DNA from: Pseudomonadota bacterium
Lineage (GTDB): Bacteria > Pseudomonadota > Alphaproteobacteria > Rhizobiales > JACESI01
Length of the DNA stretch: 64,000 nt
Assembly: GCA_039180865.1 (NCBI GenBank)
Contig: JBCDCZ010000001.1
Span: forward strand, 5,492 to 69,491
Direction: 5' to 3'
Shown here: in pieces, positions 26,229-51,583 of the stretch
Layout of the letters: every line of letters starts with the position of its first letter
Numbering within the stretch: position 1 is the first letter of the stretch
Notes under the pieces: generated by a model
What the model was told of the DNA's origin: nothing
The model's input: the letters and a program-made list of their open reading frames with translations, nothing else
Databases searched by the model: none
Position numbers and translations under genes: made by a program

Positions 26229-26288
26229 ATTTGAAATTATTGGTGACCCCGACAGGATTCGAACCTGTGACCTGCGGATTAGGAATCC
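26229..26288 (-). repeat. Direct repeat of the 3' 48 nt of tRNA-Arg(CCT) plus 12 nt of 3' flank (att-like remnant)
   Basis: 26241..26288 matches 46638..46685 at 47 of 48 nt, covering the CCA end, T-arm, variable loop and anticodon loop. The preceding 12 nt match at 10 of 12. Same orientation as the intact tRNA. Confidence 0.8.
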
Positions 26289-26479
26289 CTGAGGAGGTCG
26301 ACAGCTGATTGCTGCGCCCTACCGCCAGCTAGGGCAAAACAAAAAATTAGGTCCAATCTCACACTGTGTGATGTCAAACATAACGCTGATACTTGTCTAC
26401 ATCATGCTTACCTGACAAATGTAGAAATACGGCTCTTCAGTCCTGTCTGGGTTTCTTAAGACCCTTTGTCATTCCTTGT

Positions 26480-26508
26480 AAAAAAACTGAGCAGGCCAGT
26501 CTCCTGCC
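26480..26508 (-). terminator. Possible rho-independent terminator after the algD-like gene
   Basis: On the minus strand it reads GCAGG-AGACTGG-CCTGC followed by TCAGTTTTTTT. The stem is short, so this is weak. Confidence 0.35.
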
Positions 26509-26588
26509 GGAAGAAAAAGAAAATACCGGACAGGCCATTCACACGCCCACCCGGTTTAACCTAGCCGACCATTGTTAGGCCCGCATCC

Positions 26589-27995
26589 CTACCAGCCAAT
26601 TCCCTGATAGCTCTTAGCCTTGGGCTGTTCCCTGAAAAGCCGCGTTAGATCGACGACATCATGCGCCTCCAGACAGGCGGCAAGTGCGGCAAGCCAATAT
26701 CGACCCGGCTGTGTTGTCACAACGACTTCCGAGCAGGCGAGAAGCTCGCTCACATGTGCAGTCACCCGACCGGAAAGCTTGCGGAGTGTGAGGGCGTCCT
26801 CATGATAATGGTGACGTAGCATCGCCACCTGCCGCATCATGCTCGCCGCATCCGGATAATTCGGATCGTTTATTGAGACCTCAAAACCAAGTTCAATCAG
26901 GCGTCCGGCAAGACGCAGAGACGGGCTTTCACGCAAGTCATCCGTATCGGGCTTGAAGCTAAGGCCACAAAGCCCGACCCGTTTCTTGCCCGTTGCGGCG
27001 ATGAGACGTACAGCTTGTTCGATCTGACAATCATTTGTGTGCGGGAGGCTTTCGATCATTGGCAATTGAAGCCCGCATCGTTCCGCCAGGTGATTGACGG
27101 CGCGGACTTCTTTTGGAAGGCACGATCCGCCATAGGCAAAGCCGGGTTTCAGATAGTGCGGGGAGATGTTGAGGACCGTATCCTGGCAGAAGATCTCCAT
27201 CACTTCGTGGCCGTCGATTTCAAGATGCTGACAGATCCGTCCGATTTCATTACCGAAGCAGACTTTCGCCGCGTGCCAGACATTGTCGGCGTACTTCACC
27301 ATTTCGGCGGCATCGAGTGTGGTGGAGATCGGCATCGGATCAACCGGATCCAGAATACCGGCCAAGGCTGCGGATGCCCTCGCATCGGTCGCACCAATCA
27401 CCGTCTTCGGAGGATTGCGGAAATCATCGATTGCGGTGCTTTCGCGCAAGAATTCCGGATTGAAACACATTCCGAAATCAACCCCTGCCGCCTTCCCTGA
27501 GTGCTCCTCAACAAGGGGCAAGAAAACCTTACGGGTCGTTCCAGGCGGCACTGAACAGCGAAGAACGATTACATGGTAATCGCCTTTATGCCTTAGGGCC
27601 TCGCCGATGCCGGCTGCTACCGCGCGGATCGCCGTCATATCGCAGGACCCGTCTTCCGCAGTTGGCGTGTTTACGGAGACGAACGTGATATCCGAACCGA
27701 GAATGGCAGCGTTCAAATTGGTCGTTGCTTTGATGCGGCCGGCCCCTGCCCCCTTTTCCAGCAGATGATCGAGACCCGGCTCAACAATCGGAGAAACGCC
27801 CGCGCCGAGTTTCCCGATTTTATCTTCGTCGATATCGACACCGATCACATCATGTCCGAGATCCGAAAGGCATGCGGCGGATACAACACCGACATAACCA
27901 AGCCCGATAATACTGATGGCTGGTTTAAAAAAGGTGAGTTCTCTTTCGCCGGCGATATCGGTGGCAAGAAGCGGTGACTTAAGATGAACGTTCAT
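26589..27995 (-). CDS. algD: GDP-mannose 6-dehydrogenase-like enzyme (UDP-glucose/GDP-mannose dehydrogenase family)
   Basis: 468 aa. Rossmann N-terminus IIGLGYVGVVSAACL, an AlgD-like GVSPIVEPGLDHLL segment and the catalytic-Cys motif GFAYGGSCLPKEV. Confidence 0.7.
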   Translation of the reverse strand: MNVHLKSPLLATDIAGERELTFFKPAISIIGLGYVGVVSAACLSDLGHDVIGVDIDEDKIGKLGAGVSPIVEPGLDHLLEKGAGAGRIKATTNLNAAILGSDITFVSVNTPTAEDGSCDMTAIRAVAAGIGEALRHKGDYHVIVLRCSVPPGTTRKVFLPLVEEHSGKAAGVDFGMCFNPEFLRESTAIDDFRNPPKTVIGATDARASAALAGILDPVDPMPISTTLDAAEMVKYADNVWHAAKVCFGNEIGRICQHLEIDGHEVMEIFCQDTVLNISPHYLKPGFAYGGSCLPKEVRAVNHLAERCGLQLPMIESLPHTNDCQIEQAVRLIAATGKKRVGLCGLSFKPDTDDLRESPSLRLAGRLIELGFEVSINDPNYPDAASMMRQVAMLRHHYHEDALTLRKLSGRVTAHVSELLACSEVVVTTQPGRYWLAALAACLEAHDVVDLTRLFREQPKAKSYQGIGW

Positions 27996-28033
27996 GGCGA
28001 ACCTCTTGATTGAAACTAGGATACCCTCCTCGT

Positions 28034-28049
28034 TCCAAGGATCGTGCCA
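28034..28049 (-). promoter_or_regulatory. Possible sigma54-type promoter for the algD-like gene
   Basis: The minus strand reads TGGCACGATCCTTGGA. The -24 element and the spacing are perfect, but the -12 element is TTGG rather than TTGC. It lies about 40 nt upstream of the ATG at 27995. Confidence 0.35.
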
Positions 28050-28123
28050 CGTCGTAAGTCACTGTAAATATTAATTTTTCAAAAATCCAATATAGATCCG
28101 GTCCGCAAATAGGGAATTGGAAA

Positions 28124-28140
28124 TTGCATTTTGCAAATGG
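28124..28140. promoter_or_regulatory. TTGCA-N-TTGCAAATGG motif in the algD-like / kinase divergent region
   Basis: TTGCATTTTGCAAATGG closely resembles the motifs at 34597 and 37987. Confidence 0.35.
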
Positions 28141-28243
28141 ATACCGTTCACGACCAAAACCCGCATGAATACGCGGGAATGTGAGAAGCCCGGGTAATCG
28201 TTTCGCAGTATATTGCTGATAACGTTCTCACCGGGATCAGGTC

Positions 28244-31200
28244 ATGGAACCAGTAATGTCAGAGCGCAAATCCGATTATCGGAAAAGGTTGATCAGGCAC
28301 CTGCTCTCGATTGCTGGCCTTGCAACCAGTATTGGAATTCTGACAGTCTTGCTGATTGACCACCAGTTGGAACGTCAACAGTTCCGACTGATGGTGGAAA
28401 GTGCCGAAAATCAGTCGCGCACAATAACGGCATTTCGAAGCTACTATACGCAGGAAGTCGTTCCGAAAATCCTTGAAAATTCCGATGATCTAACCTTCTC
28501 ACATGACTACCGGGAAAGCAGAAAGACGCTACCGCTTCCAGCGACAGTTACAATCGACATGGGTGCGCTACTTGCTAACACAGAAGGCGATACCGCCTTT
28601 AATCTCATCAGTGACTTTCCGTTCGAGAACCGAAAGGGACGAGTACTAAGTGCTTTCGAGAAGGAAGCCCTCTTGGGGATCATCACCCGCAAAGAAGAGA
28701 CCATCACAGATCTCGATGAAGGCGAGGACGGAAGCCGCATCCTCCAATATGCGGAACCGGTGGTGATGATGCCAGCTTGTGTGGCGTGCCATAACACGCA
28801 TCCCCTATCGCAGAAGAAAGATTGGAAGGTTGGCGATGTTCGCGGCATTCAGACCGTCACCATCAGGGCCACTCCGGAAGCCTTTCGTTCTCTAGAAGAT
28901 TGGTATCCGCTGATTGGATTTTACAGCCTGACGATACTGGGCGTTCTCGCGGCCGTTGCCGGACTATCGGTTCGAAACCAAAGATACATAACCGAGCTGC
29001 AGGACAATGCTGAAAGAGAAAAACAAAGCCGCGCAGATCTGAAAGACATCACCCGGCAATTCATCGAGCTTGAAGAGACGCTGAGCGATGCGATCGCCTC
29101 GCTGCCGGATGGGTTCGTCATCTACGATCGCAACGACCGCCTCGTTATGTGCAACGAGAAATACCGAGAGTTTTACAGTAAGAGCGCAGATCTACTCGTT
29201 CCAGGGCGCACTTTTGAGGAGATCATCCGGCGCGGGGTCGAACGCGGCCAGTATCCGGAAGCGGACGGGCAGGAAGATTCCTGGATTTCCGAACGGCTTG
29301 AGATCCACAAAAGCCCCGTCGCACCGATCGAGCAGAGGCTTGATGATGGTCGATGGCTAAGGATTTTTGAGAGACCAACCAAGCAGGGAGGGATCGTCGG
29401 TTTCCGCGTCGATATTACCGAGCTCAAGCGGCGTGAAATCCAACTTCAAGCCCAACGCGCGCAGTTGGCAGCAACAATCGACACGGCACTCGATGCGATC
29501 ATCATCATTGATTCAAACGGTGTGATCATAGAGTTCAATCCGGCGGCGACGGCCATATTCGGTTACACGCGTGACGAATGCGTTGGGCAGAAGATGAGTG
29601 ATCTGATTGTGCCCGACCGGCATAAAGATGCTCATGAAGCCGGGATGGACAGGTTCAGGCGCACAAGGATCGGCAAGATCCTTGGAACCCGTGTGACGAT
29701 TGAGGCGATTTGCAAGGATGGTTCGGAGATCACAATCGAACTTGCGATCAATCCCGCCGAGGGCGATTCCGGCACGATTTTTGTCGGCTATATGCGAGAC
29801 ATCACGGACGATCTTGCCCAAAAGAAAGCGCTCGAAGAGGCAAAAGAAGCGGCAGAACAAGCGACACAGACAAAAGCGGCCTTTCTCGCCGTCGTGAGCC
29901 ATGAAATCCGCACGCCGCTCAACGGCGTTCTCGGTCTCCTAGATCTGATTGACAGTTCAACGAAAGATGAAAAGGTCAAGAATTACGCAAAAACAGCGAT
30001 TGAGAGCGCTGACGCCCTGGCAACGCTGCTGAACGATATCCTCGATTATACAAAGCTCGAAGAAGGCGAAATCACCGTCATGCAGACGGCTTTCAACTTT
30101 CGCACCTTCGCAGAAGGAACTCTGGATTTGATGCGTCCCCTGGCGCATGAGAAAAACCTCGTCCTCGGTCTGGAGATTGACGAGGCAGTTCCGGCATTCA
30201 TCGTCGAGGACCAGGTCCGCTTGCGGCAGATCGTTCTCAACCTCATCGCGAACGCGATCAAGTTTACCGAGACCGGCAGCGTGCAACTGCGGGCCAAACT
30301 GCTTGATGACGAAGAAGTGCCCCTTCTGTCAATCGAGGTGGAAGATACCGGCATCGGTATCGACGATGAGCATCTTCCTTTGGTCTTCGAGCAGTTCAAA
30401 ACACTGGATACCTCCTATGAACGCAAGGAGGGTGGAACCGGTCTTGGCCTTGCGATTTCCAGAGGTCTTTCCAACTTGTTGGGCGGTCAGCTCAGGGCAA
30501 ACAGCAAACCAGGCGAAGGCAGTACTTTCTCGCTAACACTACCAATATCGAAACCTGATCAAACGCCCGAGGAAGCACATGCCTCCAACATTGGCGAGAT
30601 CAAATTCCGGCTTCTCGAAGGGAGGAAAGTTCTGCTCGCTGAAGACAATCTCACCAACAATCTTGTGATGTCGGATATGCTCGAAAATGAGGGGGCCAGC
30701 GTCACGTCAGTTGCCAACGGCAAAGACGCCTTGATGGAGTGCGAAAAGACCGCATTCGACCTCATTATACTGGATATCTCCATGCCGGTAATGGATGGCA
30801 AAAAATCAGTAAAATTGCTTCGTGAAAAGGGGCACAAAGAACCAATCCTGGCGTTTACCGCCTACACCCAGTCCGAACTCCGCCCGAGTTTCATTGAAGC
30901 AGGCTTCACCGATATCCTGCTGAAGCCGGCGCGGAGGCGGGACCTTGAAGAAGTCATTATGACACTCCACGAGAGCGATCTTTTTGGTCAGCAAGCAAAG
31001 ACGGATGACAACGATAAAAAATCGCCAAGCCCCGAACCTGGCGACATTGATATGACGGAATTTGAACGCGTCATCGCCAGCACATCCGGCGAAATTAGAC
31101 ACCGATTGATTGAAGCCTGCATTGCGGATCTCCAATCCCATACAGAACAAGCAATGAGTGCGGCAGGTGGCGGCAGAACCGAGGATATCAGCCGTCATGC

Positions 31201-31426
31201 CCATGCTATCAAAGGGGTGGCGGCGACCTTCGGGTTTGCGCAGCTCCAGGAGGCGGCAGCGCGTTTGTCAGACGGAACGGTTCACCTGGCACCAAGTGAG
31301 TGGGTCGCGGAAACTCAACACATGTCAGAGATCACGGAAAGAACACGCAATGCGATCAGCACATGGTTTTCGACCAAAAACACTGCATTAGAAGACACAT
31401 CCGATTTTGAGAGCACTTTGTCATGA
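28244..31426 (+). CDS. Hybrid sensor histidine kinase with a periplasmic CxxCH (haem-c type, DUF3365-like) domain, PAS, HisKA, HATPase, REC and Hpt modules
   Basis: 1060 aa. TM1, then a ~180-aa periplasmic segment containing PACVACHNTHP, then TM2. Two PAS-like regions follow, then the H-box (VVSHEIRTPLNG), G-boxes (GTGLGLAIS), a receiver (LLAEDN...DLIILDISMP) and an Hpt (HAHAIKGVAATFG). Confidence 0.85.
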   Translation: MEPVMSERKSDYRKRLIRHLLSIAGLATSIGILTVLLIDHQLERQQFRLMVESAENQSRTITAFRSYYTQEVVPKILENSDDLTFSHDYRESRKTLPLPATVTIDMGALLANTEGDTAFNLISDFPFENRKGRVLSAFEKEALLGIITRKEETITDLDEGEDGSRILQYAEPVVMMPACVACHNTHPLSQKKDWKVGDVRGIQTVTIRATPEAFRSLEDWYPLIGFYSLTILGVLAAVAGLSVRNQRYITELQDNAEREKQSRADLKDITRQFIELEETLSDAIASLPDGFVIYDRNDRLVMCNEKYREFYSKSADLLVPGRTFEEIIRRGVERGQYPEADGQEDSWISERLEIHKSPVAPIEQRLDDGRWLRIFERPTKQGGIVGFRVDITELKRREIQLQAQRAQLAATIDTALDAIIIIDSNGVIIEFNPAATAIFGYTRDECVGQKMSDLIVPDRHKDAHEAGMDRFRRTRIGKILGTRVTIEAICKDGSEITIELAINPAEGDSGTIFVGYMRDITDDLAQKKALEEAKEAAEQATQTKAAFLAVVSHEIRTPLNGVLGLLDLIDSSTKDEKVKNYAKTAIESADALATLLNDILDYTKLEEGEITVMQTAFNFRTFAEGTLDLMRPLAHEKNLVLGLEIDEAVPAFIVEDQVRLRQIVLNLIANAIKFTETGSVQLRAKLLDDEEVPLLSIEVEDTGIGIDDEHLPLVFEQFKTLDTSYERKEGGTGLGLAISRGLSNLLGGQLRANSKPGEGSTFSLTLPISKPDQTPEEAHASNIGEIKFRLLEGRKVLLAEDNLTNNLVMSDMLENEGASVTSVANGKDALMECEKTAFDLIILDISMPVMDGKKSVKLLREKGHKEPILAFTAYTQSELRPSFIEAGFTDILLKPARRRDLEEVIMTLHESDLFGQQAKTDDNDKKSPSPEPGDIDMTEFERVIASTSGEIRHRLIEACIADLQSHTEQAMSAAGGGRTEDISRHAHAIKGVAATFGFAQLQEAAARLSDGTVHLAPSEWVAETQHMSEITERTRNAISTWFSTKNTALEDTSDFESTLS

Positions 31427-32913
31427 TGGATAAGCACATGAACAATAAACGCGTCCTGATCGTCGAAGATACGCCGACGCTTGCAATGATCTACCAAGAC
31501 CAACTCGAGAAAGCAGGGTTTGAAACTGACCTGGCTGAGACAGCCGAGCAGGCACTCAAACGATTGCAAGAGGATGACTTTGTAGTGATGCTTCTCGATC
31601 TCCAATTGCCCGATAGTGATGGTTGCACCGTGCTGGATAGGCTAAGCGAAAGCAAACGCTCACCGGCAACAATCATCATCACCGCACATGGTTCAATCAA
31701 CAAAGCGGTCGAGGCCATGCGGCTCGGCGCGCAGAATTTTCTTATGAAGCCGGTCTCGGAAGCAAAACTCATCGCAGCGGTTGAAAACGCCATCGAGGCG
31801 GATCGGATCGTTCGGACAAGCGACCAAGTCGCGATTACCGAGGCCAGTCCAAAGAAGACTGTTTCCGGACTAATCGGCGACGCACCCGTGATGCAGAATC
31901 TCTCCGCAATGATCGGCTCCATGGCACCGTCCATGGCTCCAGTATTCATTACCGGTGAAAGCGGTACGGGGAAGGAAGTCTGCGCGGAAGCCATCCATCG
32001 CTCCAGTCCCCGTGCCAAAGGCCCTTTCATGGCCGTCAACTGCGCAGCCATTCCGAAAGACCTGATCGAGTCAGAGCTTTTCGGGCACAAGAAAGGATCC
32101 TTCACCGGAGCCACATCCGACCGCAAGGGCGCTGTCATGAGCGCAAGTGGCGGGACTTTGTTTCTCGACGAAATCTGCGAGATGGACATCTCCTTGCAAG
32201 CAAAGCTGCTTCGCTTCCTTCAAACCGGTCAGATCCAACGGGTCGGCGACGATGCAGTCTTCGATGCCGATGTCAGAATCGTCTGCGCGACCAACCGCAT
32301 ACCCGTCACCGAGGTTGCAGAAGGTCGTTTCCGCGAAGACCTCTATTATCGCCTGCACGTTTTGGCTCTTCAGCTTCCAGCTCTCAGAGAACGCGGCAAT
32401 GATGTTGTTAAACTTGCCCAACACTTTCTGAGACGCGCTGCCGAGGTGGAAGGTAAAGCTTTCAACGCCTTCTCTACAGAGGCTCAAGAATGGCTCTTGA
32501 AGCATCCCTGGCCCGGCAATGTGCGGCAGCTTGAAAACCTGATCCGCGCCGTGGTCGTTCTGAACACAGGCGATGCCATCACTGAGGAGATGCTCTCTCG
32601 TGCAATGCCGCCGATACCGCTTGCATCGCAAAACAATCTGGTCGGAACGCCCGGTTTCATCGTGCCACAAAACAGCTCTTCCGCAGCGGGTATTCATGCA
32701 AACTCTGCGAACAGCACCACGCTCACTGATACCAGCATGGTAATCGACTTCGCGCGCCCGTTTCAGGATATCGAGCGCGATATTATCGAGCGGGCGATCG
32801 ACTATTGCCAAGGTTCGTTGCCGAACGCGGCACGATTACTTGGTATGAGCCCGTCAACGCTTTATCGAAAACGTGAAGCATGGGAAAAGGCGCCCGACAA
32901 AGCAAGCGCCTGA
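31423..32913 (+). CDS. NtrC-family sigma54-dependent response regulator (AlgB-like)
   Basis: 496 aa. REC (VLIVEDT...LLDLQLPD), AAA+ with GESGTGKE and the GAFTGA-type loop (ESELFGHKKGSFTGA), and a C-terminal Fis-type HTH (AARLLGMSPSTLYRK). ATGA overlap with the kinase gene. Confidence 0.9.
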   Translation: MMDKHMNNKRVLIVEDTPTLAMIYQDQLEKAGFETDLAETAEQALKRLQEDDFVVMLLDLQLPDSDGCTVLDRLSESKRSPATIIITAHGSINKAVEAMRLGAQNFLMKPVSEAKLIAAVENAIEADRIVRTSDQVAITEASPKKTVSGLIGDAPVMQNLSAMIGSMAPSMAPVFITGESGTGKEVCAEAIHRSSPRAKGPFMAVNCAAIPKDLIESELFGHKKGSFTGATSDRKGAVMSASGGTLFLDEICEMDISLQAKLLRFLQTGQIQRVGDDAVFDADVRIVCATNRIPVTEVAEGRFREDLYYRLHVLALQLPALRERGNDVVKLAQHFLRRAAEVEGKAFNAFSTEAQEWLLKHPWPGNVRQLENLIRAVVVLNTGDAITEEMLSRAMPPIPLASQNNLVGTPGFIVPQNSSSAAGIHANSANSTTLTDTSMVIDFARPFQDIERDIIERAIDYCQGSLPNAARLLGMSPSTLYRKREAWEKAPDKASA

Positions 32914-32924
32914 TACTTTGATGC

Positions 32925-34415
32925 TTAAGCTGCGGCCGTTTTTTCGGCATCCGGATGATCGGTCCGATTGCGACCATAGACATCTTCAAGGCGGATGATG
33001 TCGTCTTCGCCGAAGTATGTCCCGGTCTGAACCTCAATCATAACGATTGGATCGCTGCCGAAGTTCTCCAGCCGGTGCACAGCTCCAAGTGGAATATGGA
33101 CATGGCCACCCGCTTTCAGATGTTGAACATCATCATCAATGGTGACCGTCGCCTCTCCCTGAACGATAATCCAATGCTCGGCACGATATTGGTGCTTTTG
33201 TAATGACAGGCGACCGCCGGGATTAACTTCGATCATCTTCACCTGATGCTGGGTACCATTGTGTAGCGGCGCGAAGCGACCCCACGGGCGCACTTCACCG
33301 GGATGCTTCAAGACCTCAGGCGTCTGCTCGTCTATCATGTGTTGGACACATGTTTTCAACTCGCCCACCCGATCTTTACTGGTCACCAGAACGGCATCTT
33401 TGGTCGAGACAACGATGCAGTCCTCCATCCCAACGACAGTGGTGAGACGATCCGGGCTGTGAACATGGCAATTGCGGTTTTCGTGACCCACCACATTACC
33501 GTGAGTTGAATTGCCGAGATCATCTTTCTCGACCTGGCCCGCAACCGCATCCCAGGTCCCGAGATCGTCCCAGTCGCACTCAAATGGAACGACTGCAACC
33601 CGGCTACTTAACTCCATAACCGCATAATCGATCGAGATCTTGGCAACGGACGCAAAGAATTGCTTGTTTGGTCGAACAATGTGGCCCGCGATTTCGGCTT
33701 TCGAGAGCGCGTTTCGCGTGCCACGAAACAGATCCGGACAAAGCCATGCCGTCTCCCGGAGAAAACTTCTGACCGGGAAGAGAAACATACCGCTGTTCCA
33801 AAAATAATCGCCGCTTGCAAGGAAAGCTTTTGCAACATCTGCAATCGGCTTTTCGATGAAACTTGCCACCTTGTTTGCGGGCAAACTGAAAAGCTGCCTG
33901 CCGCGTTTGATGTAGCCATACTCGGTGGCCGCACGGGTCGGCGTAATTCCAAAGGTAACCAGACGGTTGACTTGCTGAGCCGTGTGCATACCAGACCGGA
34001 CCATCGCATGAAATGCGTCCTGATCACTGATGACCTGATCGCTTGGGAAAACCGCCATAAGATCACTGTCGCGTAAAAAGTCCGAACAATAGTGGGCGGC
34101 GATCACGATAGCAGCAGCCGTATCACGCGAACACGGTTCCGCAATGATCACTCGTGGTTCAATACCGATCTCCGCAAGCTGCGCCTCGGCAAGCATGCGA
34201 TGCCCTTCACCGACGACGACAACTGGACACTCGAAAAGCTCCGGCTCAGAGCAACGCTTCACCGTGTGCTGAAAAAGCGAAAGTGCGCCATCAAGCTTGA
34301 TAAAGGGCTTCGGACAATCGGGTCGGGACACCGGCCAAAGCCGGACGCCGGACCCACCTGCAAGAATGACTGGAACAATTCTAGCCGTCTGTTTTGAGCT
34401 TGTTGAATTGATCAT
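32925..34415 (-). CDS. Bifunctional mannose-1-phosphate guanylyltransferase / mannose-6-phosphate isomerase (AlgA/ManC type)
   Basis: ORF 32925..34457. The ATG at 34415 follows an AGGAGG RBS. It has the IVPVILAGGSGVRLWPVSR nucleotidyltransferase motif and a C-terminal type II PMI cupin (RPWGRF...GRLSLQKHQYRAEHWIIVQGEA). Confidence 0.85.
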   Translation of the reverse strand: MINSTSSKQTARIVPVILAGGSGVRLWPVSRPDCPKPFIKLDGALSLFQHTVKRCSEPELFECPVVVVGEGHRMLAEAQLAEIGIEPRVIIAEPCSRDTAAAIVIAAHYCSDFLRDSDLMAVFPSDQVISDQDAFHAMVRSGMHTAQQVNRLVTFGITPTRAATEYGYIKRGRQLFSLPANKVASFIEKPIADVAKAFLASGDYFWNSGMFLFPVRSFLRETAWLCPDLFRGTRNALSKAEIAGHIVRPNKQFFASVAKISIDYAVMELSSRVAVVPFECDWDDLGTWDAVAGQVEKDDLGNSTHGNVVGHENRNCHVHSPDRLTTVVGMEDCIVVSTKDAVLVTSKDRVGELKTCVQHMIDEQTPEVLKHPGEVRPWGRFAPLHNGTQHQVKMIEVNPGGRLSLQKHQYRAEHWIIVQGEATVTIDDDVQHLKAGGHVHIPLGAVHRLENFGSDPIVMIEVQTGTYFGEDDIIRLEDVYGRNRTDHPDAEKTAAA

Positions 34416-34448
34416 GACAAACCTCCTTGTTGGTTTGCCTAATGGTCC

Positions 34449-34463
34449 GCAATTCACAGGCCA
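34449..34463 (-). promoter_or_regulatory. sigma54-type (-24/-12) promoter for the algA-like gene
   Basis: The minus strand reads TGGCCTGTGAATTGC, with GG and GC at the canonical spacing. It lies about 34 nt upstream of the ATG at 34415. Confidence 0.5.
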
Positions 34464-34553
34464 GATCCCAGACGATCAAACGAATTGAAACTAAAGTATT
34501 GAAAATAAAAGGTTTTAAATCCTGCAACTCGAATCTGACTGCGTTTTTATCCA

Positions 34554-34568
34554 TTGCAAAACGCAAAT
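34554..34568. promoter_or_regulatory. TTGCA-type motif copy (degenerate)
   Basis: TTGCAAAACGCAAAT lies between the two divergent sigma54-type promoters. Confidence 0.3.
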
Positions 34569-34596
34569 CGGCCTCTCTCGACGTGTCGGACGATCC

Positions 34597-34609
34597 TTGC
34601 AAATTGCAA
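34597..34609. promoter_or_regulatory. TTGCAAATTGCAA palindromic motif (candidate activator or operator site)
   Basis: Two self-complementary TTGCAA hexamers separated by 1 nt, about 30 bp upstream of the -24 element at 34640. The same 13-mer recurs at 37987. Confidence 0.4.
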
Positions 34610-34639
34610 TTCTTGCGCCCGCAAAGACGCGAAAATTTC

Positions 34640-34655
34640 TGGCATGGCGTTTGCT
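34640..34655 (+). promoter_or_regulatory. sigma54-type (-24/-12) promoter for the alg44-like operon
   Basis: TGGCATGGCGTTTGCT compared with the consensus TGGCACG-N4-TTGCW. It lies about 65 nt upstream of the ATG at 34721. Confidence 0.6.
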
Positions 34656-34720
34656 GATCTAAGGGCGAAGTCATTCTGCAACACGGCCCTGAAAACGCCG
34701 TGAAAGCGAAAGAGGCTGTT

Positions 34721-37940: not shown

Positions 37941-37986
37941 GAACCACTTCGCCGTTCGCAGTATGGGAAGTGCAAGCAGCCACCTC

Positions 37987-38003
37987 TTGCAAATTGCAAA
38001 TGG
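37987..38003. promoter_or_regulatory. TTGCAAATTGCAAATGG motif in the alg8-like / SGNH intergenic region
   Basis: Exact repeat of the 13-mer at 34597 and closely similar to 28124..28140. It lies in a 159-bp gap inside the otherwise tightly packed operon. Confidence 0.4.
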
Positions 38004-38099
38004 CACGAAGCCACACTCAGAAATAATCCAAATATTTCAATGAATTAAATCTGGCTCACCCTTTGCACACCTGAACCTAAAAGCGATTTGAGGTGTGCC

Positions 38100-39389: not shown

Positions 39390-40590
39390 ACGTGCCAGAA
39401 ATCGCCTCCTCGCAATCAGCGTTGCAATCTTGTTTGCCGGGGGAGCAGGCCTGTGGGCTGCGTCTCATGTTGAAGGCGACAACGAAAGTGTCCGCTACCC
39501 GCCAAATGATCCGAAAATCGTTCGCGCGGTCCGCAAAGCGCGATCCTTGCAAAAGTCCGGGCAACTTAAAGATGCGGTCATTGAACTGGAACGCCTCGTC
39601 ACACGAGGGGATCCGACCGCAATGTATTATTTGGCGATGGCCCACGAGAAAGGCTGGGGGATCTCTCCTGATCTAGAAGAGATGCGAACCCTTCTGCAGG
39701 CGGCGGTGGAATATGAGTTCGACCTCCGCGGTCAGACTGCCTACAAGCTTGGGCGTCTCTATCAATTGGCAAGTGAAGCGGACTGTCAGAAAATCGCCGT
39801 CGCGTGGTTCCAGAAGGCCCTACAGTGGAACTACCCAAAGGCACATATGCAATTGGCCAGCCACTACGAACGTGGGATTGGGATCAAGCAGGATCTGGAT
39901 CTTGCAATTTACCACTTCGAAGAGGCGGCAGACGCAGGGTTCGAAACCGCGTCTCTTTCTTTCGCTCGATCCCTGGTCAAAGGGCGCTTCAAGAAGCGTT
40001 ATGACGCGTCTCGTGCCCTCGCCTTGGCAAACCGTGCAGTCCTTGCCTACGAGATCAAAGCTTCGAACGGCTCTGGCACTGCTGCGAAAGTTCTCGGTCG
40101 TTTGTATCGAGATGGCGAATTCGTCGATCAGAACGATGCGCAGGCACTCTACTGGTTTCGTCGCTCAAGCTTACTTGGCGACACCGGCGGCATGCATGAA
40201 CTCGGCCTTTTTCTCATCGCTGTCTCAACTACGCTTGAGACCGATGCTAGATGGAACGAAGGCCTGAGTTGGCTTGAGAAAGCCGCTTCGCTCAGCCACG
40301 GCGGCGCGATGACGGCGCTCGGACGCCTCCACCTCAAGGAAGAGCGCGATCTCAAAAAAGACGACGCCCCCCAATGGTTCGAAAAAGGGGTGGCGACCGG
40401 TCATGGCGGATCGATGGAAGAGCTCGCCAGGCTCAAGGCGGCAGGTGAACTCGTCCCTCACGATTTACCAGGTGCAATAGTCCTTGCGGAAAAGGGCGCC
40501 AATCTCGGTCACGCCGGGTCGCGCAAACTCTTGAAGAAGCTACAGGCGGCTGAGGAAACCAAGCCCCTGTCTCTTCTGAAAAAATCCTGA
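39382..40590 (+). CDS. Sel1-like repeat (SLR/TPR) protein, AlgK-like
   Basis: 402 aa with an N-terminal signal-anchor and at least 6 Sel1-type repeats (e.g. GDPTAMYYLAMAHEKGWGI, YPKAHMQLASHYERGIGI, GGMHELG, HGGAMTALGRLH). 8-nt overlap with the previous gene. Confidence 0.7.
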   Translation: MTRRARNRLLAISVAILFAGGAGLWAASHVEGDNESVRYPPNDPKIVRAVRKARSLQKSGQLKDAVIELERLVTRGDPTAMYYLAMAHEKGWGISPDLEEMRTLLQAAVEYEFDLRGQTAYKLGRLYQLASEADCQKIAVAWFQKALQWNYPKAHMQLASHYERGIGIKQDLDLAIYHFEEAADAGFETASLSFARSLVKGRFKKRYDASRALALANRAVLAYEIKASNGSGTAAKVLGRLYRDGEFVDQNDAQALYWFRRSSLLGDTGGMHELGLFLIAVSTTLETDARWNEGLSWLEKAASLSHGGAMTALGRLHLKEERDLKKDDAPQWFEKGVATGHGGSMEELARLKAAGELVPHDLPGAIVLAEKGANLGHAGSRKLLKKLQAAEETKPLSLLKKS

Positions 40591-40616
40591 CAATCGAGTG
40601 AGTAAGGAGAAGCGCA

Positions 40617-42119
40617 ATGGTCTTCAGTTCGCTTGAATTTATCTACCTGTTCTTACCTCCGGTTCTCACAGGTTTTTTGATCTTAAGGTGGCTCGGAACC
40701 GAAAAGGGAATCATATGGTGGCTGATCGCTGCATCGCTCGCATTTTACGCGTGGTGGAGCCCGATCCACCTTGTCCTCCTGATGGCGTCGGTCGCTTCCA
40801 ATTTCGCGCTCCACAAGATCATCCTGAAGACTAAGAGTACCACAGTGCTTGCGGTCGGGATTATCGGTAATCTCGCAACCCTCGCTTACTTCAAATACGC
40901 TGATTTTCTAATCGGCAGTTTAAATCCGGTCCTTGGCACGGATCTCGCGATGATGAACATCGTCCTGCCGCTCGCGATTTCGTTCTTCACCTTCCAGCAG
41001 ATATCGTTTCTGTACGATACCTATCGGGGTGACATCGCCGATTGTGGTTTCGCGAAATATTGCCTTTTCGTTGTCTTCTTTCCGCAATTGATCGCCGGTC
41101 CGATCGTACTGCAGAAGGACACAATCCCGCAATTCCGGCTCGCGATCTTTCAAAGCCGGGTCTTCGTGAACCTTTCGGTTGGCGGCACCCTATTCGTCAT
41201 AGGCCTCTTCAAGAAAATCGTTTTCGCTGACGGCGTTGCGCCAGTCGCCAACACGGTTTTCGGTCTTGCAGATAGCGGCGAAGCCGTCCCGCTAGAAGCG
41301 GCCTGGATCGGTGCCCTCGCCTATACACTGCAGATCTATTTCGACTTTTCGGGTTATTGCGATATGGCGCTGGGCCTTGCACGCATGTTCGGCATCCGTT
41401 TGCCGATCAATTTCAACTCCCCCTATAAGTCAAAATCTATTGTCGAATTCTGGCGCCGCTGGCACATCACGCTCTCCCGCTTTTTGCGCGACTACCTGTA
41501 CATTCCGCTCGGCGGAAACAAGCAGGGCAAAGGGCGCCGCTACTTCAACCTGATGGCGACGATGGTCCTTGGCGGGCTCTGGCACGGTGCAGCCTGGACC
41601 TTTGTCTTCTGGGGGCTCCTGCACGGCTTCTACCTCATCATCAATCACGCCTGGAGCGCCATCTCGCGCGACTTCGAGGAGCTTGCCGTCATCCCGCGAC
41701 CAGTCCGCGTCCTCTTTGCCCAAAGCCTCACCATGCTGGCCGTCGTCGTCGCTTGGGTTTTCTTCAGAGCGGAAACTTTCGGCGGCGCGCTTTCGATCCT
41801 TCAGGGCATGACCGGACTAACAGACGGCGTGAATAAGGCGCTTTGGAAAGACCTGATGCTTCAAAGCGCAAACCACTGGGCGGTTATCGCATGTTTGTTT
41901 GCTGTCGTCTTTGTCGCGCCGAACAGCATCGAGATTTTGCGCAACTACCGTCCTGTCACCGAGTTGAGAGCCGCGCTCCAAAATGCCGGCAAAGTCCGGC
42001 GGATTGTCTGGCGCGCCTCACCTGGATGGGGGCTTGTCGCGGCGGGCCTGACGCTTGTTGCGGTGATCCAGGTCTACCGTCTCGAGAACATGACGGAGTT
42101 CATCTACTTCAATTTCTAA
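40617..42119 (+). CDS. algI: MBOAT-family O-acyltransferase (AlgI/DltB type)
   Basis: 500 aa, polytopic. Signature FWRRWHITLSRFLRDYLYIPLGGN containing the conserved His. Confidence 0.85.
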   Translation: MVFSSLEFIYLFLPPVLTGFLILRWLGTEKGIIWWLIAASLAFYAWWSPIHLVLLMASVASNFALHKIILKTKSTTVLAVGIIGNLATLAYFKYADFLIGSLNPVLGTDLAMMNIVLPLAISFFTFQQISFLYDTYRGDIADCGFAKYCLFVVFFPQLIAGPIVLQKDTIPQFRLAIFQSRVFVNLSVGGTLFVIGLFKKIVFADGVAPVANTVFGLADSGEAVPLEAAWIGALAYTLQIYFDFSGYCDMALGLARMFGIRLPINFNSPYKSKSIVEFWRRWHITLSRFLRDYLYIPLGGNKQGKGRRYFNLMATMVLGGLWHGAAWTFVFWGLLHGFYLIINHAWSAISRDFEELAVIPRPVRVLFAQSLTMLAVVVAWVFFRAETFGGALSILQGMTGLTDGVNKALWKDLMLQSANHWAVIACLFAVVFVAPNSIEILRNYRPVTELRAALQNAGKVRRIVWRASPGWGLVAAGLTLVAVIQVYRLENMTEFIYFNF

Positions 42120-42133
42120 GGGCATGAATAAAA

Positions 42134-44116
42134 ATGAAAACTCGCATGTCCTTAGCGAGGGCGAGCGCTTGGCACATCTTGATGCTCGCCCTCATCCTCA
42201 GTCCTTACTGTTCACCCGTAGGGGCTGAGGACAGTTTACCCGGCTACGAAATTGCGCTCAAAGGCAAGAAAACAAGCTTCAATACCCATACTGGAAAACT
42301 AACAATCCGCGGCATCAGCCGCAAAGGACTGGTATCCGCCCAACGTCGGAGCAATCTCCTTCTCAGCCGCTATTTCGAAGACGGTGGCTTTCGCGAGACC
42401 GTTGAGCTTAATGGAGAGATACTCGTTGACGGTCGAGATACGAGCGACATAGCCCGGGTATCCGGGTTTCGCACCGATCGCGACGGTTCCTTCGTCTACG
42501 TCCGAATAACAAAAGGGCCGGACGGCCAGGTGACGCTTGTGCAGGATGGCGATCCGGTACTGACCTGGCGACGAAACAGTCGGATCAGCATCCTGTCTTA
42601 TGACCGCAAGAGCCTCGTTACGGCCGAATATGATCAGGCCCGCCAGCGTACCGTTTTTTTGCGCTATATGCGCCTTGAGAACGGTCGAATATCATCTGAG
42701 CCCCAGCCAATTGGCGCTTTAGAAGACTGCGCTTTGTTGGGTGCGCGGATCACGAAAACGTCTATCATCGCTCAAACCTATTGCGACCCATCAAAGGGAA
42801 GTGACCTCGTCGAGATTAGCCTTGAGACGGGGGAGCAGAGCGGGATCGCTGCGGGTTCCGCCGATGAGATGATATCTCCGATCAGGCCACGCGAAAAAGG
42901 CGCAATCTCCGTTCTTACGATTGATGGCAATCCCAATGGCAAGCAAGCCTTTCATGCAATAGCAGGACTTTTCCTTTCCTCGCTTGGAGAACCGATGTCA
43001 CTTGCCTCTGACGAGGCCGGGCGCCAGAGCTGGGCGCAAAGCTACCGGACAAGAACACTCGGACTGCTCTTTGAGAAGACCGGGCACCCAGTGTTCGCAT
43101 CACTCGCGACTCGCGCGATGACCAACACGCTCATGCAGGATAACCGAAGGCTGGGCCTGACAGGCCCATTCAATCCGTCTTGCGCATGGGCGTCCCGGAT
43201 TTACTCACAAGACGGCAAGTCACCGGTTTCATTCCTCGTCAATCAGGCGATGATTGCCTCAGCCCTGACACGTACCTGCGAACGCCTTGGTACGTCCTGT
43301 CCATCGAAGCTTAAAGCGGCCATTGAACGAAAAAACCGTTGTCTGATCGCGGCCTATGAACCGCATTTCGATCACAAGCACGGACTCTACCGGATACAAT
43401 ATGGCGCACCCTTTCGGTTCGATGGGATATGGGCGCCCTGGAACTGGCAAATGAGCCTGCTACCGGTCCTTGTGAACGTTGCCCGTTCTCAGGAAAACGA
43501 CACTCTAAAAAACCGTGCTGCAAGTATCGCAAACCGGTTCGTTGAGAGCTGGAGCGAGCAAGAAAACGGTGTCACTTGGCGTTATTGGCCTCGCCCCTAT
43601 TACGACGGATGGCAGAGCGAAGACCGAATATCGCAGAACAGACCGGAGCAACGAACACACATTCCGAAACGGTTCGAAGACACCAACCATGCCGGGATTA
43701 GTCTGCTTGGGCTGGCGGATTCGGGGTATCGAAACGCACTACCTGAATCGATGGCAGACGGGCTCACCAGACGGATCGATACGCTGATTGAAGCCGTTCC
43801 GGGAAGCCCACGTGATCTCGACGGGCAAGGACCGAGGAGCCCGCAATGGATTCCGGGTGGGGGCTTCGCGGCATTTGCTACGGACGAATTGGATAAACTC
43901 TATGCAGCGAAGTTACCTGCAAGCGTTTCATCGGATCAGCATCTTGCCTATGCCATGCTTTTCGATCCGAAAGAACCGTTCGATCTTAGGATAGAACTGC
44001 GCCAGTGCGATGAGACTGGATGCTCGACACGAGTCGATAAGCGCTACAATTCCGTTTCAGATTTTCTGTCCGACAACCCGCTCTTTACAATCCGTCGCCT
44101 TAAAACCGGACGATAA
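42134..44116 (+). CDS. Secreted 660-aa protein of unknown function, last gene of the EPS operon
   Basis: Signal peptide (ILMLALILSPYCSPVGAED). No motif I can assign. The 14-nt gap after the MBOAT gene implies co-transcription. Confidence 0.6.
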   Translation: MKTRMSLARASAWHILMLALILSPYCSPVGAEDSLPGYEIALKGKKTSFNTHTGKLTIRGISRKGLVSAQRRSNLLLSRYFEDGGFRETVELNGEILVDGRDTSDIARVSGFRTDRDGSFVYVRITKGPDGQVTLVQDGDPVLTWRRNSRISILSYDRKSLVTAEYDQARQRTVFLRYMRLENGRISSEPQPIGALEDCALLGARITKTSIIAQTYCDPSKGSDLVEISLETGEQSGIAAGSADEMISPIRPREKGAISVLTIDGNPNGKQAFHAIAGLFLSSLGEPMSLASDEAGRQSWAQSYRTRTLGLLFEKTGHPVFASLATRAMTNTLMQDNRRLGLTGPFNPSCAWASRIYSQDGKSPVSFLVNQAMIASALTRTCERLGTSCPSKLKAAIERKNRCLIAAYEPHFDHKHGLYRIQYGAPFRFDGIWAPWNWQMSLLPVLVNVARSQENDTLKNRAASIANRFVESWSEQENGVTWRYWPRPYYDGWQSEDRISQNRPEQRTHIPKRFEDTNHAGISLLGLADSGYRNALPESMADGLTRRIDTLIEAVPGSPRDLDGQGPRSPQWIPGGGFAAFATDELDKLYAAKLPASVSSDQHLAYAMLFDPKEPFDLRIELRQCDETGCSTRVDKRYNSVSDFLSDNPLFTIRRLKTGR

Positions 44117-44120
44117 GAAA

Positions 44121-44146
44121 GGGCCGGTCTCTTTCAAAACCGGCCC
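44121..44146. terminator. Bidirectional stem-loop between convergent genes
   Basis: GGGCCGGT-N10-ACCGGCCC, a perfect 8-bp GC-rich stem, 5 nt after the stop at 44116 and 29 nt after the stop at 44175. Confidence 0.6.
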
Positions 44147-44174
44147 GCTTAAGTTCGTGTTTGTCGCCAGAGGA

Positions 44175-46202
44175 TCAGGCAAACAGCAGCCAGTCTGCGC
44201 TCGTTAGATCCGCGACACTCACACCTTCAAAAAGAACGCTATCGTCGTGCATCGGATCTAGCGATGCGAAGTCAAGAAGCGCTCCGTCTTGAGTGTCACT
44301 TAAGGCCGCCTCATAATCTCCGAGGCTGTAACCATCCGACAGCGAGACAAGATCGGTTCCGACTTCAAAGTCGATGATGACATCATCGCCATCACCGAAT
44401 TCAAAGACGAAGGTGTCTTCAACCCCATCATTGCGACCGAGTTCCGCTCCATAAAGAACGTCATCTCCTTCACCGCCATCGATCAGGTCAGAGCCCTTGC
44501 CGCCGCGGAGCATGTCGGCACCTTCCCCACCGGAGAGTGTATCGGCACCGCTTCCACCATTGAGATAATCGTCACCGAATTCCCCGTTGAGAAGATCGTC
44601 ACCGGTATAGCCGATGAGCGTATCATCGCCGGCACCACCATCGATTTCATTCGCTAGGCGGCTCCCGATGATTTTGTCGTCGTACCCTGTGCCGATCATG
44701 TTCTCGATACTGATGAGCTCATCGGTCCCGTCACCTCTAACGGCACCGGTAAGGAGGTTCGCGGAAATCTTCTTCGTCCAGTTCGAGTAGTCGACGGTGT
44801 CAATGCCGGAGCCGCCATTGATCACATCATTACCGGTGCCACCGTCAATCAGATCGTCACCGCTGTTGCCATCGATCTGGTCGTTACCGGAACCGCCTCT
44901 GAGGACATCATCTCCACTGCCACCACTAAGAGTGTCATGACCACTCTCACCTTCGAGGATGTCATTGCCGCTGTTGCCTTCGAGGGAATCGTTGCCCTGG
45001 CCTCCCCTGACGATATCGTTATCGGAGCCGCCCTTCAGAGTGTCATTTCCGTGACCACCTTCGATCGTGTCGTCGCCGGAGCTCCCCTCCAGTAGGTCAT
45101 GACCATTTCCGCCAAAAAGCTGATCGTCTCCCGAATTGCCGAAGAGCTCATCATCACCACGCCCACCATCAAGGAGATCATTTCCAAGCCCACCGAAGAG
45201 TTCGTCATGGCCGTTCTCGCCATAAAGGACATCATTGCCGCGATGGCCGTAGAGCTCATCCGATCCGGTTCCGCCATAAAGGATATCGTCGTCCTTATAG
45301 TCGATCACGATCGGTGGGCCATCGCCCTGCTGGTTACCGGGATTGTCGAGGCCCAACGAAGTCCGGTAATGGGCATTGAGAAGGGTGGCATTCTCAGTCC
45401 CGATATCGACGGTAAAAACGCTGTCGTCGAAGTCGCGATCCCCACCATTATAGAGATCCTCAAATCCGAGCGTGATCGTCCCTTTCTGGGTTTTCAGGAT
45501 TCCGGTCGTATGAAGGATTCCATCCGGATTGAGATCAACCGTGTCGCCGTGCGCCGCCGTATGATAGGCGTGGTGCCTGACGGGCGTCGTCGTGCCATCA
45601 TTACCCTCAAAGACAAGTTGCGGGTTGATGCTCGAGAGCGTTGCCGTATCGCCGTTCGTGTCGATAAACGCGAAGCTACCGTCGTTGAAATTGGCAAAGT
45701 TGTTGTAGCTGTAGCCATTCGAAACGATGAAAAAGCCGAGTTGATCACCGGCCGACACATCGAGATATTCTCGTGTCTCGCCACCGATAAGATTGCCGCC
45801 GCTTCCTTGCAGCGAGGCATTCGGCCAGATGATAGAAACATCCTTGATTTCACCCGTCTCGGCATCGACTTTGTAATAGCCGAAGCTGTTCCGGTATCCG
45901 GCTGTTTCCCCTTCAAAGATCACACTGACCGGATAATCGTCTGTGACTGTGATGGACTGGACCTGTACGACATTGGGACCACCGGACCCGTAAAGCACAT
46001 CGTTGCCGTTGTTGCCGTAGAGCGTGTCGCTCCCGCGACCGCCCCAGACTTCATCATTTCCGTTCTGACCAGACATAACATCATCGCCAAGGCGACCTGA
46101 CATAACGTCTGAATGGACGGTCCCGGTAATCGTGTCGTCTTGATTTGTTCCGATAATCGGGTGTGTTGCCGGTAGGCTCCCCATATCAATTCTCCTGCTC
46201 AT
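44175..46202 (-). CDS. RTX-type calcium-binding repeat protein with a central DUF4114-like domain (probable T1SS substrate)
   Basis: 675 aa. GGxGxD nonapeptide repeats occur near the N-terminus and throughout the C-terminal half. The central segment YRNSFGYYKVD...GDRDFDDSVFTVDIG is DUF4114-like. No signal peptide, and an acidic C-terminus. Confidence 0.8.
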   Translation of the reverse strand: MSRRIDMGSLPATHPIIGTNQDDTITGTVHSDVMSGRLGDDVMSGQNGNDEVWGGRGSDTLYGNNGNDVLYGSGGPNVVQVQSITVTDDYPVSVIFEGETAGYRNSFGYYKVDAETGEIKDVSIIWPNASLQGSGGNLIGGETREYLDVSAGDQLGFFIVSNGYSYNNFANFNDGSFAFIDTNGDTATLSSINPQLVFEGNDGTTTPVRHHAYHTAAHGDTVDLNPDGILHTTGILKTQKGTITLGFEDLYNGGDRDFDDSVFTVDIGTENATLLNAHYRTSLGLDNPGNQQGDGPPIVIDYKDDDILYGGTGSDELYGHRGNDVLYGENGHDELFGGLGNDLLDGGRGDDELFGNSGDDQLFGGNGHDLLEGSSGDDTIEGGHGNDTLKGGSDNDIVRGGQGNDSLEGNSGNDILEGESGHDTLSGGSGDDVLRGGSGNDQIDGNSGDDLIDGGTGNDVINGGSGIDTVDYSNWTKKISANLLTGAVRGDGTDELISIENMIGTGYDDKIIGSRLANEIDGGAGDDTLIGYTGDDLLNGEFGDDYLNGGSGADTLSGGEGADMLRGGKGSDLIDGGEGDDVLYGAELGRNDGVEDTFVFEFGDGDDVIIDFEVGTDLVSLSDGYSLGDYEAALSDTQDGALLDFASLDPMHDDSVLFEGVSVADLTSADWLLFA

Positions 46203-46637
46203 TGAAACTGACTGCGCCGCAATCGCGGCCGCATGGTGTCAGCTCTCAATGGGCAAGAGAAATGCCAGAAAGGCTCAAGATTAGGCCACAATTAAGATAT
46301 TGATTTATAATGATTAAATTTAAAACGCTTAATTGGAGCGACGTGTATCTTTTGCACTTTGCGAAACCGGCTCGCTATATGCGAATTGAGAGGCGAACGG
46401 ATGATCACCAGATCCATGATGTGGAGGCCTTACGAGCCCGCCAGTTGAGAAGTCCTGGCTTTTTATCCTTGAAGGAACTGCAAAAATAACTGAGGCGCTG
46501 AAACCGCTCCTCACATATGGGTTGCTCAGCCCTACAAAAAAGACGGGTAAGTGATCAACGAAAAGGCTTAGGGCGCTTGCATAGTGCCTACAAAACAATT
46601 TGAATTCGTCTCGTGTCAACGAGCTATTTGAGATTTT

Positions 46638-46714
46638 TGGTGACCCCGACAGGATTCGAACCTGTGACCTACGGATTAGGAATCCGTCGCTCTATCCTGC
46701 TGAGCTACGGGGCC
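46638..46714 (-). tRNA. tRNA-Arg (anticodon CCT), CCA encoded
   Basis: The reverse complement folds as a cloverleaf: acceptor GGCCCCG/CGGGGTC, D-arm GCTC..GAGC, anticodon stem ACGGA/TCCGT with loop TTCCTAA, T-arm ACAGG-TTCGAAT-CCTGT, then ACCA. Confidence 0.9.
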
Positions 46715-51567: not shown

Positions 51568-51583
51568 TGCCGATACTCCATTT

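Follow-up and report, generated by a model that had tools for sequence, protein, structure and literature searches.

Cis-mobilizable elements (CIMEs), first described in Streptococcus, are derivatives of ICEs (integrative and conjugative elements) or of IMEs (integrative and mobilizable elements) in which integration and transfer genes were lost and attL and attR retained (PMC5704250). Integrase-mediated islands, in turn, can be mapped by the logic of Islander, which pairs a regenerated tRNA gene with its cognate displaced 3′ fragment (PMC4383910). Here, we describe a segment of 20,349 bp (positions 26289..46637) with features of both, located in a 64,000-nt stretch of DNA (hereafter the window) of contig JBCDCZ010000001.1 from the alphaproteobacterial metagenome-assembled genome (MAG) GCA_039180865.1. 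The segment lies between an intact tRNA-Arg(CCT) gene and a displaced copy of its 3′ part. The closest available genome, hereafter the sister, is MAG GCA_039181265.1 (Pseudomonadota bin P01_G01_bin.24), with about 88-90% nucleotide identity. We read the segment as a tRNA-linked, non-autonomous, CIME-like island with an exopolysaccharide (EPS) locus native to its clade as cargo, which was inserted after the two species had split; we assign this reading a probability of about 0.6.

Like a CIME, the segment is enclosed by direct repeats of the attL/attR type, placed where a tRNA gene has its 3′ end, and it contains cargo only and no integration or transfer genes. The differences are that tblastx and blastn detect no remnant of an ICE or IME backbone in the island ends, which neither proves nor excludes an origin by decay, that no tandem partner element was seen, and that the cargo is a clade-native 11-gene EPS locus of native composition. 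With Islander islands the segment shares the intact tDNA with a 3′ fragment in direct orientation, the regenerated target, the typical 20-kb size and the empty site in a relative; however, an island in the sense of Islander must contain a gene for a tyrosine integrase, which is absent here, and the composition is not anomalous. In its present state the island fits the CIME definition, and mobilisation in trans, a property of CIMEs, may apply to it by analogy.

The junctions of the island are formed by the following features.

46638..46714, minus strand: intact tRNA-Arg(CCT) gene (ARAGORN; Rfam RF00005, 72.1 bits), the regenerated target gene, functional in form, on the attL-type side.
26241..26288, minus strand: displaced 3′ fragment of tRNA-Arg(CCT), tRNA positions 30-77, on the attR-type side.
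26229..26240: 12 nt of chromosomal 3′ flank, matching the island-internal 46626..46637 in 10/12 positions.
46553..46637: island-internal flank of the intact tRNA, homologous in degenerate form to the chromosomal 3′ flank of the tRNA and equally far from the tRNA end.

The intact gene is the sole tRNA detected in the window by ARAGORN and Rfam, and it equals the sister's tRNA over all 77 nt. The displaced fragment and the corresponding part of the intact gene (26241..26288 versus 46638..46685) are identical at 47 of 48 positions, have the same orientation and lie 20,397 bp apart; the sole substitution in the displaced fragment is at tRNA position 44. The repeat extends from the 5′ strand of the anticodon stem (position 30) through the whole anticodon loop to the encoded CCA. 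When <=3 mismatches were allowed, the 48-nt pattern occurred twice in the window, exactly at 46638..46685 and with one mismatch at 26241..26288; no third copy was found at this threshold, and the number of matches expected from dinucleotide-preserving shuffles was 0.00. Including the flank, a repeat search returned the pair as 60 nt at 95% identity (26229..26288 versus 46626..46685). The extent "anticodon loop to CCA end" is described for att sites that integrases define (bioRxiv 10.1101/2020.11.02.365908), and the repeat has this extent, which is usual for tyrosine integrases with their crossover in the anticodon loop.

The sister genome provides the empty site. Its tRNA-Arg(CCT) (L081 8635..8711) continues without interruption into the sequence homologous to window positions 26288..19297 (87.5% identity), and a three-way alignment identifies this 3′ flank as the orthologue of the left flank of the window. 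The displaced fragment at 26241..26288 adjoins, without a break, the same chromosomal flank as the intact tRNA does in the sister. The homologue of the left-flank fecR gene and the right-flank region share one sister contig of 75.8 kb, and the right flank agrees with the sister at 98% amino acid identity in the first right-flank protein, a fusion protein encoded at 47017..50565 through which the sister MAG was reached, and at 90.5% DNA identity over window positions 46837..60559. The initial annotation of this DNA had placed the tRNA on the minus strand at 46638..46714, had pointed out its same-orientation 48-nt copy (47/48, at 26241..26288) with 12 further flank nucleotides matching 10/12, and had taken the pair as the attL/attR footprint of an integration into the 3′ end of a tRNA gene, which predicted a relative with an empty tRNA-Arg(CCT) site joined directly to position 26240 leftwards. 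All of this was borne out, by ARAGORN and Rfam for the tRNA, by the pattern scan with its shuffles and the extension to 60 nt for the repeat, and by the combination of the repeat with the site present in GCA_039181265.1 for the footprint.

Similarity to the chromosome is also found within the island. In a local alignment with the tRNA flank of the sister, 46553..46637 reached a score of 30 (z = 6.2), while shuffled sequences averaged 16.2 (sd 2.2) and scored 27 at most, and the block similar to the chromosomal flank comprises 45 nt at ~40-85 nt downstream of the tRNA end. This region is a diverged homologue of the chromosomal flank, which suggests that the incoming DNA once adjoined a tRNA-Arg(CCT) in another, more distant genome.

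The segment between the repeats contains 11 genes and is 93% coding, with a largest non-coding gap of 435 bp. This gap is one of the two island ends.

26289..26588: left non-coding end, 48.3% GC, unique; homology to the EPS contig of the sister stops at 26587.
46203..46637: right non-coding end, 435 bp, 45.5% GC, the usual place of an integrase gene; no coding remnant detected.

Pfam scans of the 11 island genes yielded no integrase, excisionase, transposase or conjugation domain, and elsewhere in the window no integrase, excisionase, transposase, relaxase or secretion-system domain was found. A six-frame Pfam scan of both ends (E<=10) returned no remnant of an integrase or of the other kinds of gene, and neither 26289..26588 nor 46203..46637 gave a tblastx or blastn match to the compared loci, phages or plasmids. 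Tested as an ICE, an IME or a prophage, the island, like the whole window, lacks an integrase with a relaxase or oriT, a type IV secretion system and phage structural genes. A cognate phage or provirus was not found either, as the 48-nt att-like sequence had 0 exact matches in IMG/VR; the only match to a 38-nt core in that database belongs to the tRNA array of a 165-kb viral contig and is irrelevant. Concerning plasmid carriage, tblastn with the 660-aa protein of the island found no match in PLSDB. The initial annotation had likewise seen no integrase, excisionase, transposase or conjugation gene between the repeats. Its description of the ends as non-coding stands, and their being AT-rich holds relative to coding DNA only, since 48.3% and 45.5% GC are ordinary for intergenic DNA here (mean of the 16 other intergenic regions in the window, 48.5%).

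The 11 genes of the island are as follows.

26589..27995, minus strand: GDP-mannose 6-dehydrogenase (AlgD-like), with the N-terminal, central and C-terminal UDPG_MGDP_dh domains of Pfam; TIGR03026 above cut-off.
28244..31426, plus strand: hybrid sensor histidine kinase with Tll0287-like, PAS, HisKA, HATPase, receiver and Hpt domains.
31423..32913, plus strand: NtrC-type sigma-54-dependent response regulator (domain scan).
32925..34457, minus strand: mannose-1-phosphate guanylyltransferase / mannose-6-phosphate isomerase (GMP/PMI; AlgA-like), assigned by Pfam and the TIGR01479 equivalog.
34700..36334, plus strand: Alg44-like co-polymerase with a PilZ (cyclic di-GMP-binding) domain and a HlyD-type membrane-fusion domain.
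36303..37940, plus strand: family-2 glycosyltransferase (GT2; Glyco_tranf_2_3) in the position of an Alg8-like synthase.
38088..39389, plus strand: 433-aa protein of no known family, a conserved member of a six-gene core.
39382..40590, plus strand: Sel1/TPR-repeat protein (AlgK-like; domain scan).
40617..42119, plus strand: MBOAT O-acyltransferase (AlgI-like; domain scan).
42134..44116, plus strand: 660-aa protein of no known family, a conserved member of the six-gene core.
44175..46202, minus strand: RTX calcium-binding repeat protein with DUF4114 (domain scan), presumably secreted.

From its gene content, the cargo is predicted to be an alginate-like EPS locus, which would supply GDP-mannuronate to a synthase-dependent route with cyclic di-GMP control and O-acetylation and which possesses its own kinase and NtrC-type regulator. 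That the segment holds a complete polysaccharide locus with two-component regulators had been noted at the outset, and the domain scans, with the histidine kinase and the NtrC-type regulator, agree.

The composition of the island does not set it apart. Its GC content is 53.7%, between those of the left (52.7%) and the right flank (54.4%), and its tetranucleotide distances to the flanks (10.9 and 9.3) are below the distance from flank to flank (11.4). The same EPS locus is present in the sister on another contig (JBCDCU010000027.1), collinear with window positions 26587..43548 at 88.6-89.6% identity. Between the two genomes, the synonymous divergence (dS, Nei-Gojobori) is 0.32-0.61 in 10 island genes, 0.26-0.50 in four left-flank genes and 0.31-0.46 in nine right-flank genes. 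Because the composition matches the flanks and the synonymous divergence of the sister's orthologous locus equals that of the flanking core genes, the cargo is native to the clade and was relocated, or exchanged within the clade, and not imported from afar; the locus is therefore older than the split of the species. The proposal of the initial annotation that the element was horizontally acquired is not supported by these values, and the comparison of GC and tetranucleotides with the flanks that it had suggested as a check revealed no deviation of the island.

In the sister, the EPS locus occupies a different position. Homology stops 2 nt past the stop codon of the AlgD-like gene, followed by a 300-bp spacer, which differs completely from the 300 bp at this place in the window, and by an intact tRNA-Arg(ACG) (L083 11711..11787), the 3′ end of which faces AlgD; an unrelated HATPase_c gene lies beyond.

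The displaced fragment also bears on the age of the insertion. The spacer from the tRNA end to the first left-flank gene, which encodes an extracytoplasmic function (ECF) sigma factor, is 79.8% identical between the genomes, a Jukes-Cantor distance of 0.235. A neutral 48-nt fragment would be expected to have accumulated 5.6 changes since the split at the spacer rate and 9.6 at the synonymous rate; one change was observed (P = 0.024 and 0.0007, respectively). By these rates, and barring gene conversion, the duplication postdates the species split, which makes the empty site of the sister the ancestral state.

These observations are compatible with the following course of events. A circular DNA carrying an attP-like copy of the part of tRNA-Arg(CCT) from the anticodon loop to CCA would have been inserted into the chromosomal tRNA gene in the manner of Campbell, in the lineage of the window once this had separated from the sister species; the catalyst was most likely a tyrosine integrase with its crossover in the anticodon loop. 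The tRNA at 46638..46714 would have been regenerated by the copy that the island brought, and the original 3′ half would have been displaced by 20.4 kb, to 26241..26288. Because the island has neither integrase, excisionase and transfer genes nor room for them, the recombinase would have acted in trans or would have been lost cleanly from the 435-bp end beside the tRNA. As for the later immobilisation proposed by the initial annotation, the two att sites have stayed almost intact, and an integrase acting in trans could still move the element.

The other side of the tRNA has changed as well. In the sister, a 15.5-kb hyp/hup cluster for a [NiFe]-hydrogenase lies between the 5′ side of the tRNA and the right-flank gene (L001 13729..23546; L081 1..8524), with an 11-bp direct repeat, TCAGGCATTGA, at its two borders. 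The window lacks this cluster except for one remnant.

46765..46847, minus strand: 3′-end remnant of hypE, 27 codons, SMPESENAKIIGRAHDGQPGRVALGTVV.

Because one copy of TCAGGCATTGA is kept in the window, the cluster was lost from this lineage by a microhomology deletion. In the window lineage, hydrogenase genes were deleted on one side of the tRNA and the EPS island was gained on the other. A second small deletion is indicated by ~120 nt between hypE and the tRNA in the sister (L081 8467..8587) that are absent at window position ~46761..46765; because this sequence upstream of the tRNA is missing in the window, the tRNA promoter region differs between the genomes.

Insertion by an integrase has to be weighed against routes that do without one. 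DNA from a related strain that carried the EPS locus with its own tRNA-Arg(CCT) 3′ half and downstream flank might have entered, as a circle or looped out, by a single RecA-dependent crossover in about 130 nt of shared sequence, which would have been duplicated by the event. The similarity of the repeats does pass the tRNA end, with 10/12 matches in the next 12 nt and the 45-nt block ~40-85 nt downstream (z = 6.2), no integrase or remnant is present, and a clade-native cargo makes it plausible that the donor possessed a homologous region around this tRNA. However, the well-conserved part measures only 48-60 nt, short for an efficient RecA crossover, its inner boundary at the anticodon stem is expected of integrase att sites and not demanded by homology, and no known genome has the RTX end of the locus naturally beside tRNA-Arg(CCT), so we consider such a homology-driven insertion unlikely. 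Should the island instead be old at its site, the sister would have lost it by recombination between the direct repeats, and the EPS locus beside its tRNA-Arg(ACG) would be a second copy or an excised copy that re-inserted. Such a deletion would yield exactly the structure of L081, a perfect tRNA with an apparently empty site; the island genes have the same dS as core genes, which places the locus before the split, and the same region underwent another deletion in the window's lineage, that of the hyp/hup cluster. Yet about 6-10 changes would be expected in a fragment that had already been drifting when the species split, and it has one (P = 0.024 to 0.0007), barring gene conversion; the complete difference of the 300 bp after AlgD moreover shows that the sister copy did not arise by simply relocating an element with these ends. 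An old island lost from the sister appears to us quite improbable.

Finally, the structure could be an artefact of assembly or binning, with a contig that is chimeric through a widely shared tRNA or an EPS contig of the sister that stems from another organism. The window, a metagenome-assembled contig, and the sister both come from metagenome bins of a marine study. In run X1, two related populations co-occur, a window-type population at a depth of 17-30 and a sister-type population at a depth of 8-13, and word depth over the tRNA, which is common to many species, rises to 200-1400 compared with 17-30 on the flanks. Logan unitigs (k=31) break there, in a shared stretch of 34 nt, so that the join of the flank to the displaced fragment is unphased. 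The same unitigs, on the other hand, confirm two joins at window depth, that of the fragment to the island (26246..27153, depth 26.7) and that of the island to the tRNA (46367..46666, depth 19.7), so that the truncated fragment and the tRNA end carried by the island are real. With 60 nt and 77 nt, the repeat and the tRNA stay below the final k of the assembler, provided that the k141 in the contig names of the sister MAG holds for the window as well; depth is similar over flanks and island, and two independent chimeric joins would be needed. We regard an artefact as highly improbable. The loose Logan ends at the 34-nt stretch represent cross-laid copies and are evidence neither for nor against excised or empty forms. 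The variants and the hypF junction of the second population of the source run, present at about a third of the depth, match the sister MAG (window 46837 and 46993..47530), so that the two species, or strains, occur together in one sample.

Several observations weigh against the CIME-like island that we prefer. The enzyme is hypothetical, with no integrase anywhere in the 64 kb, and the diverged flank homology at 46553..46637 is not required by a pure att core and would equally serve a RecA-dependent insertion. Composition and dS show no sign of transfer. The sister copy lies in opposite polarity relative to a different tRNA, and because of this one integrase specificity cannot explain both positions; its contig, moreover, ends inside the gene of the 660-aa protein and does not cover the far boundary of the locus. 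Both genomes are bins, and the k=31 unitigs do not phase the flank-to-fragment join. For the CIME-like island, what is shown comprises the repeat and the empty site, the lack of recombinase genes, and a composition and divergence like those of the flanks; which type of recombinase acted, that it did so in trans and which way the locus moved are inferred.

Among known systems, close counterparts of the cargo are the alginate clusters of Pseudomonas and Azotobacter, with the gene order algD-8-44-K-E-G-X-L-I-J-F-A. The island resembles them in possessing AlgD, an AlgA-type GMP/PMI, a GT2 beside a PilZ/membrane-fusion partner, a Sel1/TPR protein and an MBOAT protein. It differs in its gene order, in lacking recognisable AlgE, AlgG, AlgX, AlgL, AlgJ and AlgF, in place of which the 433-aa, the 660-aa and the RTX/DUF4114 proteins are found, and in the presence, within the locus, of a hybrid kinase and an NtrC-type regulator of its own. 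Of the periplasmic, outer-membrane and acetylation proteins of such clusters, the Sel1 (AlgK-like) and MBOAT (AlgI-like) proteins were the only ones recognised. The best match of the AlgD-like protein in the PDB is the GDP-mannose 6-dehydrogenase of P. aeruginosa (1mfz, E 6e-113), and the AlgA-like protein scores 512.7 bits with TIGR01479 (cut-off 373). The genes for the Alg44-like protein (PilZ and HlyD) and the GT2 are adjacent and overlap, and this pair had no equivalog-level model and no PDB sequence match; the GT2 synthase is the most conserved gene of the locus among relatives (61-82% amino acid identity). Neither the 433-aa nor the 660-aa protein had a match in Pfam, NCBIfam or, by sequence, the PDB. 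For the 433-aa protein, a role in export across the outer membrane is only a guess. The AlphaFold2 model of the 660-aa protein (pLDDT 92.8, pTM 0.91) consists of an N-terminal beta-propeller-like domain and an (alpha/alpha)6-type barrel, with only weak neighbours among PDB folds (propellers; GH105, GH116, polysaccharide lyase and YihS), and none of its 77 homologues is named. Because of this predicted fold, the protein is probably a polysaccharide-modifying enzyme.

The order of the six-gene core Alg44-Alg8-p433-AlgK-AlgI-p660 (window 34700..44116; p433 and p660 being the two proteins of no known family) is conserved in about 55 marine genomic and metagenomic loci (L084-L088, L091-L140), among them 49 JGI metagenome loci as well as Coralliovum pocilloporae, Pelagibius, Anderseniella and Rhodobiaceae bins. 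The product of this core appears to be uncharacterised, as do the two proteins of no known family, and the placement of AlgD, AlgA, the kinase-regulator pair and the RTX gene around the core varies. Several of these loci lie next to tRNA genes, in contexts that are unrelated. In Coralliovum, a tRNA-Ala(GGC) (L084 11698..11773) stands beside the EPS locus with its 3′ end facing AlgD; two tRNA-Arg(ACG) are located downstream of p660 in six metagenome loci (L100-L103, L105, L108), followed by a tRNA-Ser(GCT) in the three for which the contig is long enough; and a tRNA-Met (CAT) adjoins the locus in two more (L138-L139). The whole regulated EPS locus may be a recurrent non-autonomous mobile unit of marine Alphaproteobacteria that moves between tRNA genes by the integrases of other elements, with Arg-CCT in the window, Arg-ACG in the sister and Ala-GGC in Coralliovum as its possible sites. 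A second att footprint was not found, as no displaced tRNA fragment was present where this could be checked and Coralliovum has no repeat of its tRNA-Ala(GGC) within 28 kb of the locus. We hold a recurrent unit of this kind to be rather doubtful. In the distant relatives L088 (7237..11143) and L091 (12806..16689), RTX/DUF4114 and AlgD, the genes at the ends of the window's island, are adjacent; L091 contains a remnant of an insertion sequence (HTH_Tnp_1) between them and an inverted kinase-regulator pair. Such a circular permutation was considered as a sign of a circularised island and set aside as not specific, since the accessory genes are shuffled generally in the survey of 49 loci.

The genes flanking the island are syntenic with the sister on both sides.

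25034..25513, minus strand: ECF sigma factor, first left-flank gene, syntenic with the sister, where it lies directly beside tRNA-Arg(CCT).
24046..24963, next after the ECF sigma factor: FecR, left flank.
21562..23886, after FecR: TonB-dependent receptor, left flank.
47017..50565, minus strand: fusion of major facilitator superfamily (MFS), acyltransferase and AMP-binding domains, first right-flank gene, syntenic with the sister.

The fusion protein comprises 1182 aa, has an AMP-binding domain similar to acyl-ACP synthetases and resembles a lysophospholipid transporter fused to a re-acylation enzyme. Relatives of its gene occur in many Alphaproteobacteria (80 loci), with synteny in L001 only and a tRNA beside the gene in none. 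Exact-protein look-ups gave no record for the ECF sigma factor of the window and for the homologue P0003, and P0004 was on an uninformative 2-kb contig; a degenerate pattern for the flank-tRNA joins of both species had 0 matches in JGI metagenomes. The left flank is rich in iron-uptake genes, with three paralogous triplets of ECF sigma factor, FecR and TonB-dependent receptor (4573..8499, 8849..12832, 21562..25513) and, in addition, TonB, ExbB and a fourth receptor (13284..15874 and 16667..19018). The receptor at 16667..19018 is an outlier in dS (1.08 versus about 0.3-0.5 for its neighbours), which suggests an allelic replacement.

The current understanding of genomic islands is not overturned by this island, the kind of which is already known, be it CIME-like or a decayed tRNA island. 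It offers a precisely mapped tRNA-targeted insertion for which the empty site is available in a sister genome, with a large lineage-native pathway as cargo and no recombinase of its own. Islands of this kind are missed by finders that demand an integrase or an odd composition, and they show that relocation of att-flanked DNA can reshuffle core-like gene clusters. If the EPS locus were indeed a recurrent mobile unit, a native, housekeeping-looking pathway would be shuffled within the chromosome and among close relatives by att hitch-hiking. With its six conserved genes, the locus furthermore represents a polysaccharide machinery found widely among marine bacteria, two proteins of which belong to no known family and are worth characterising.

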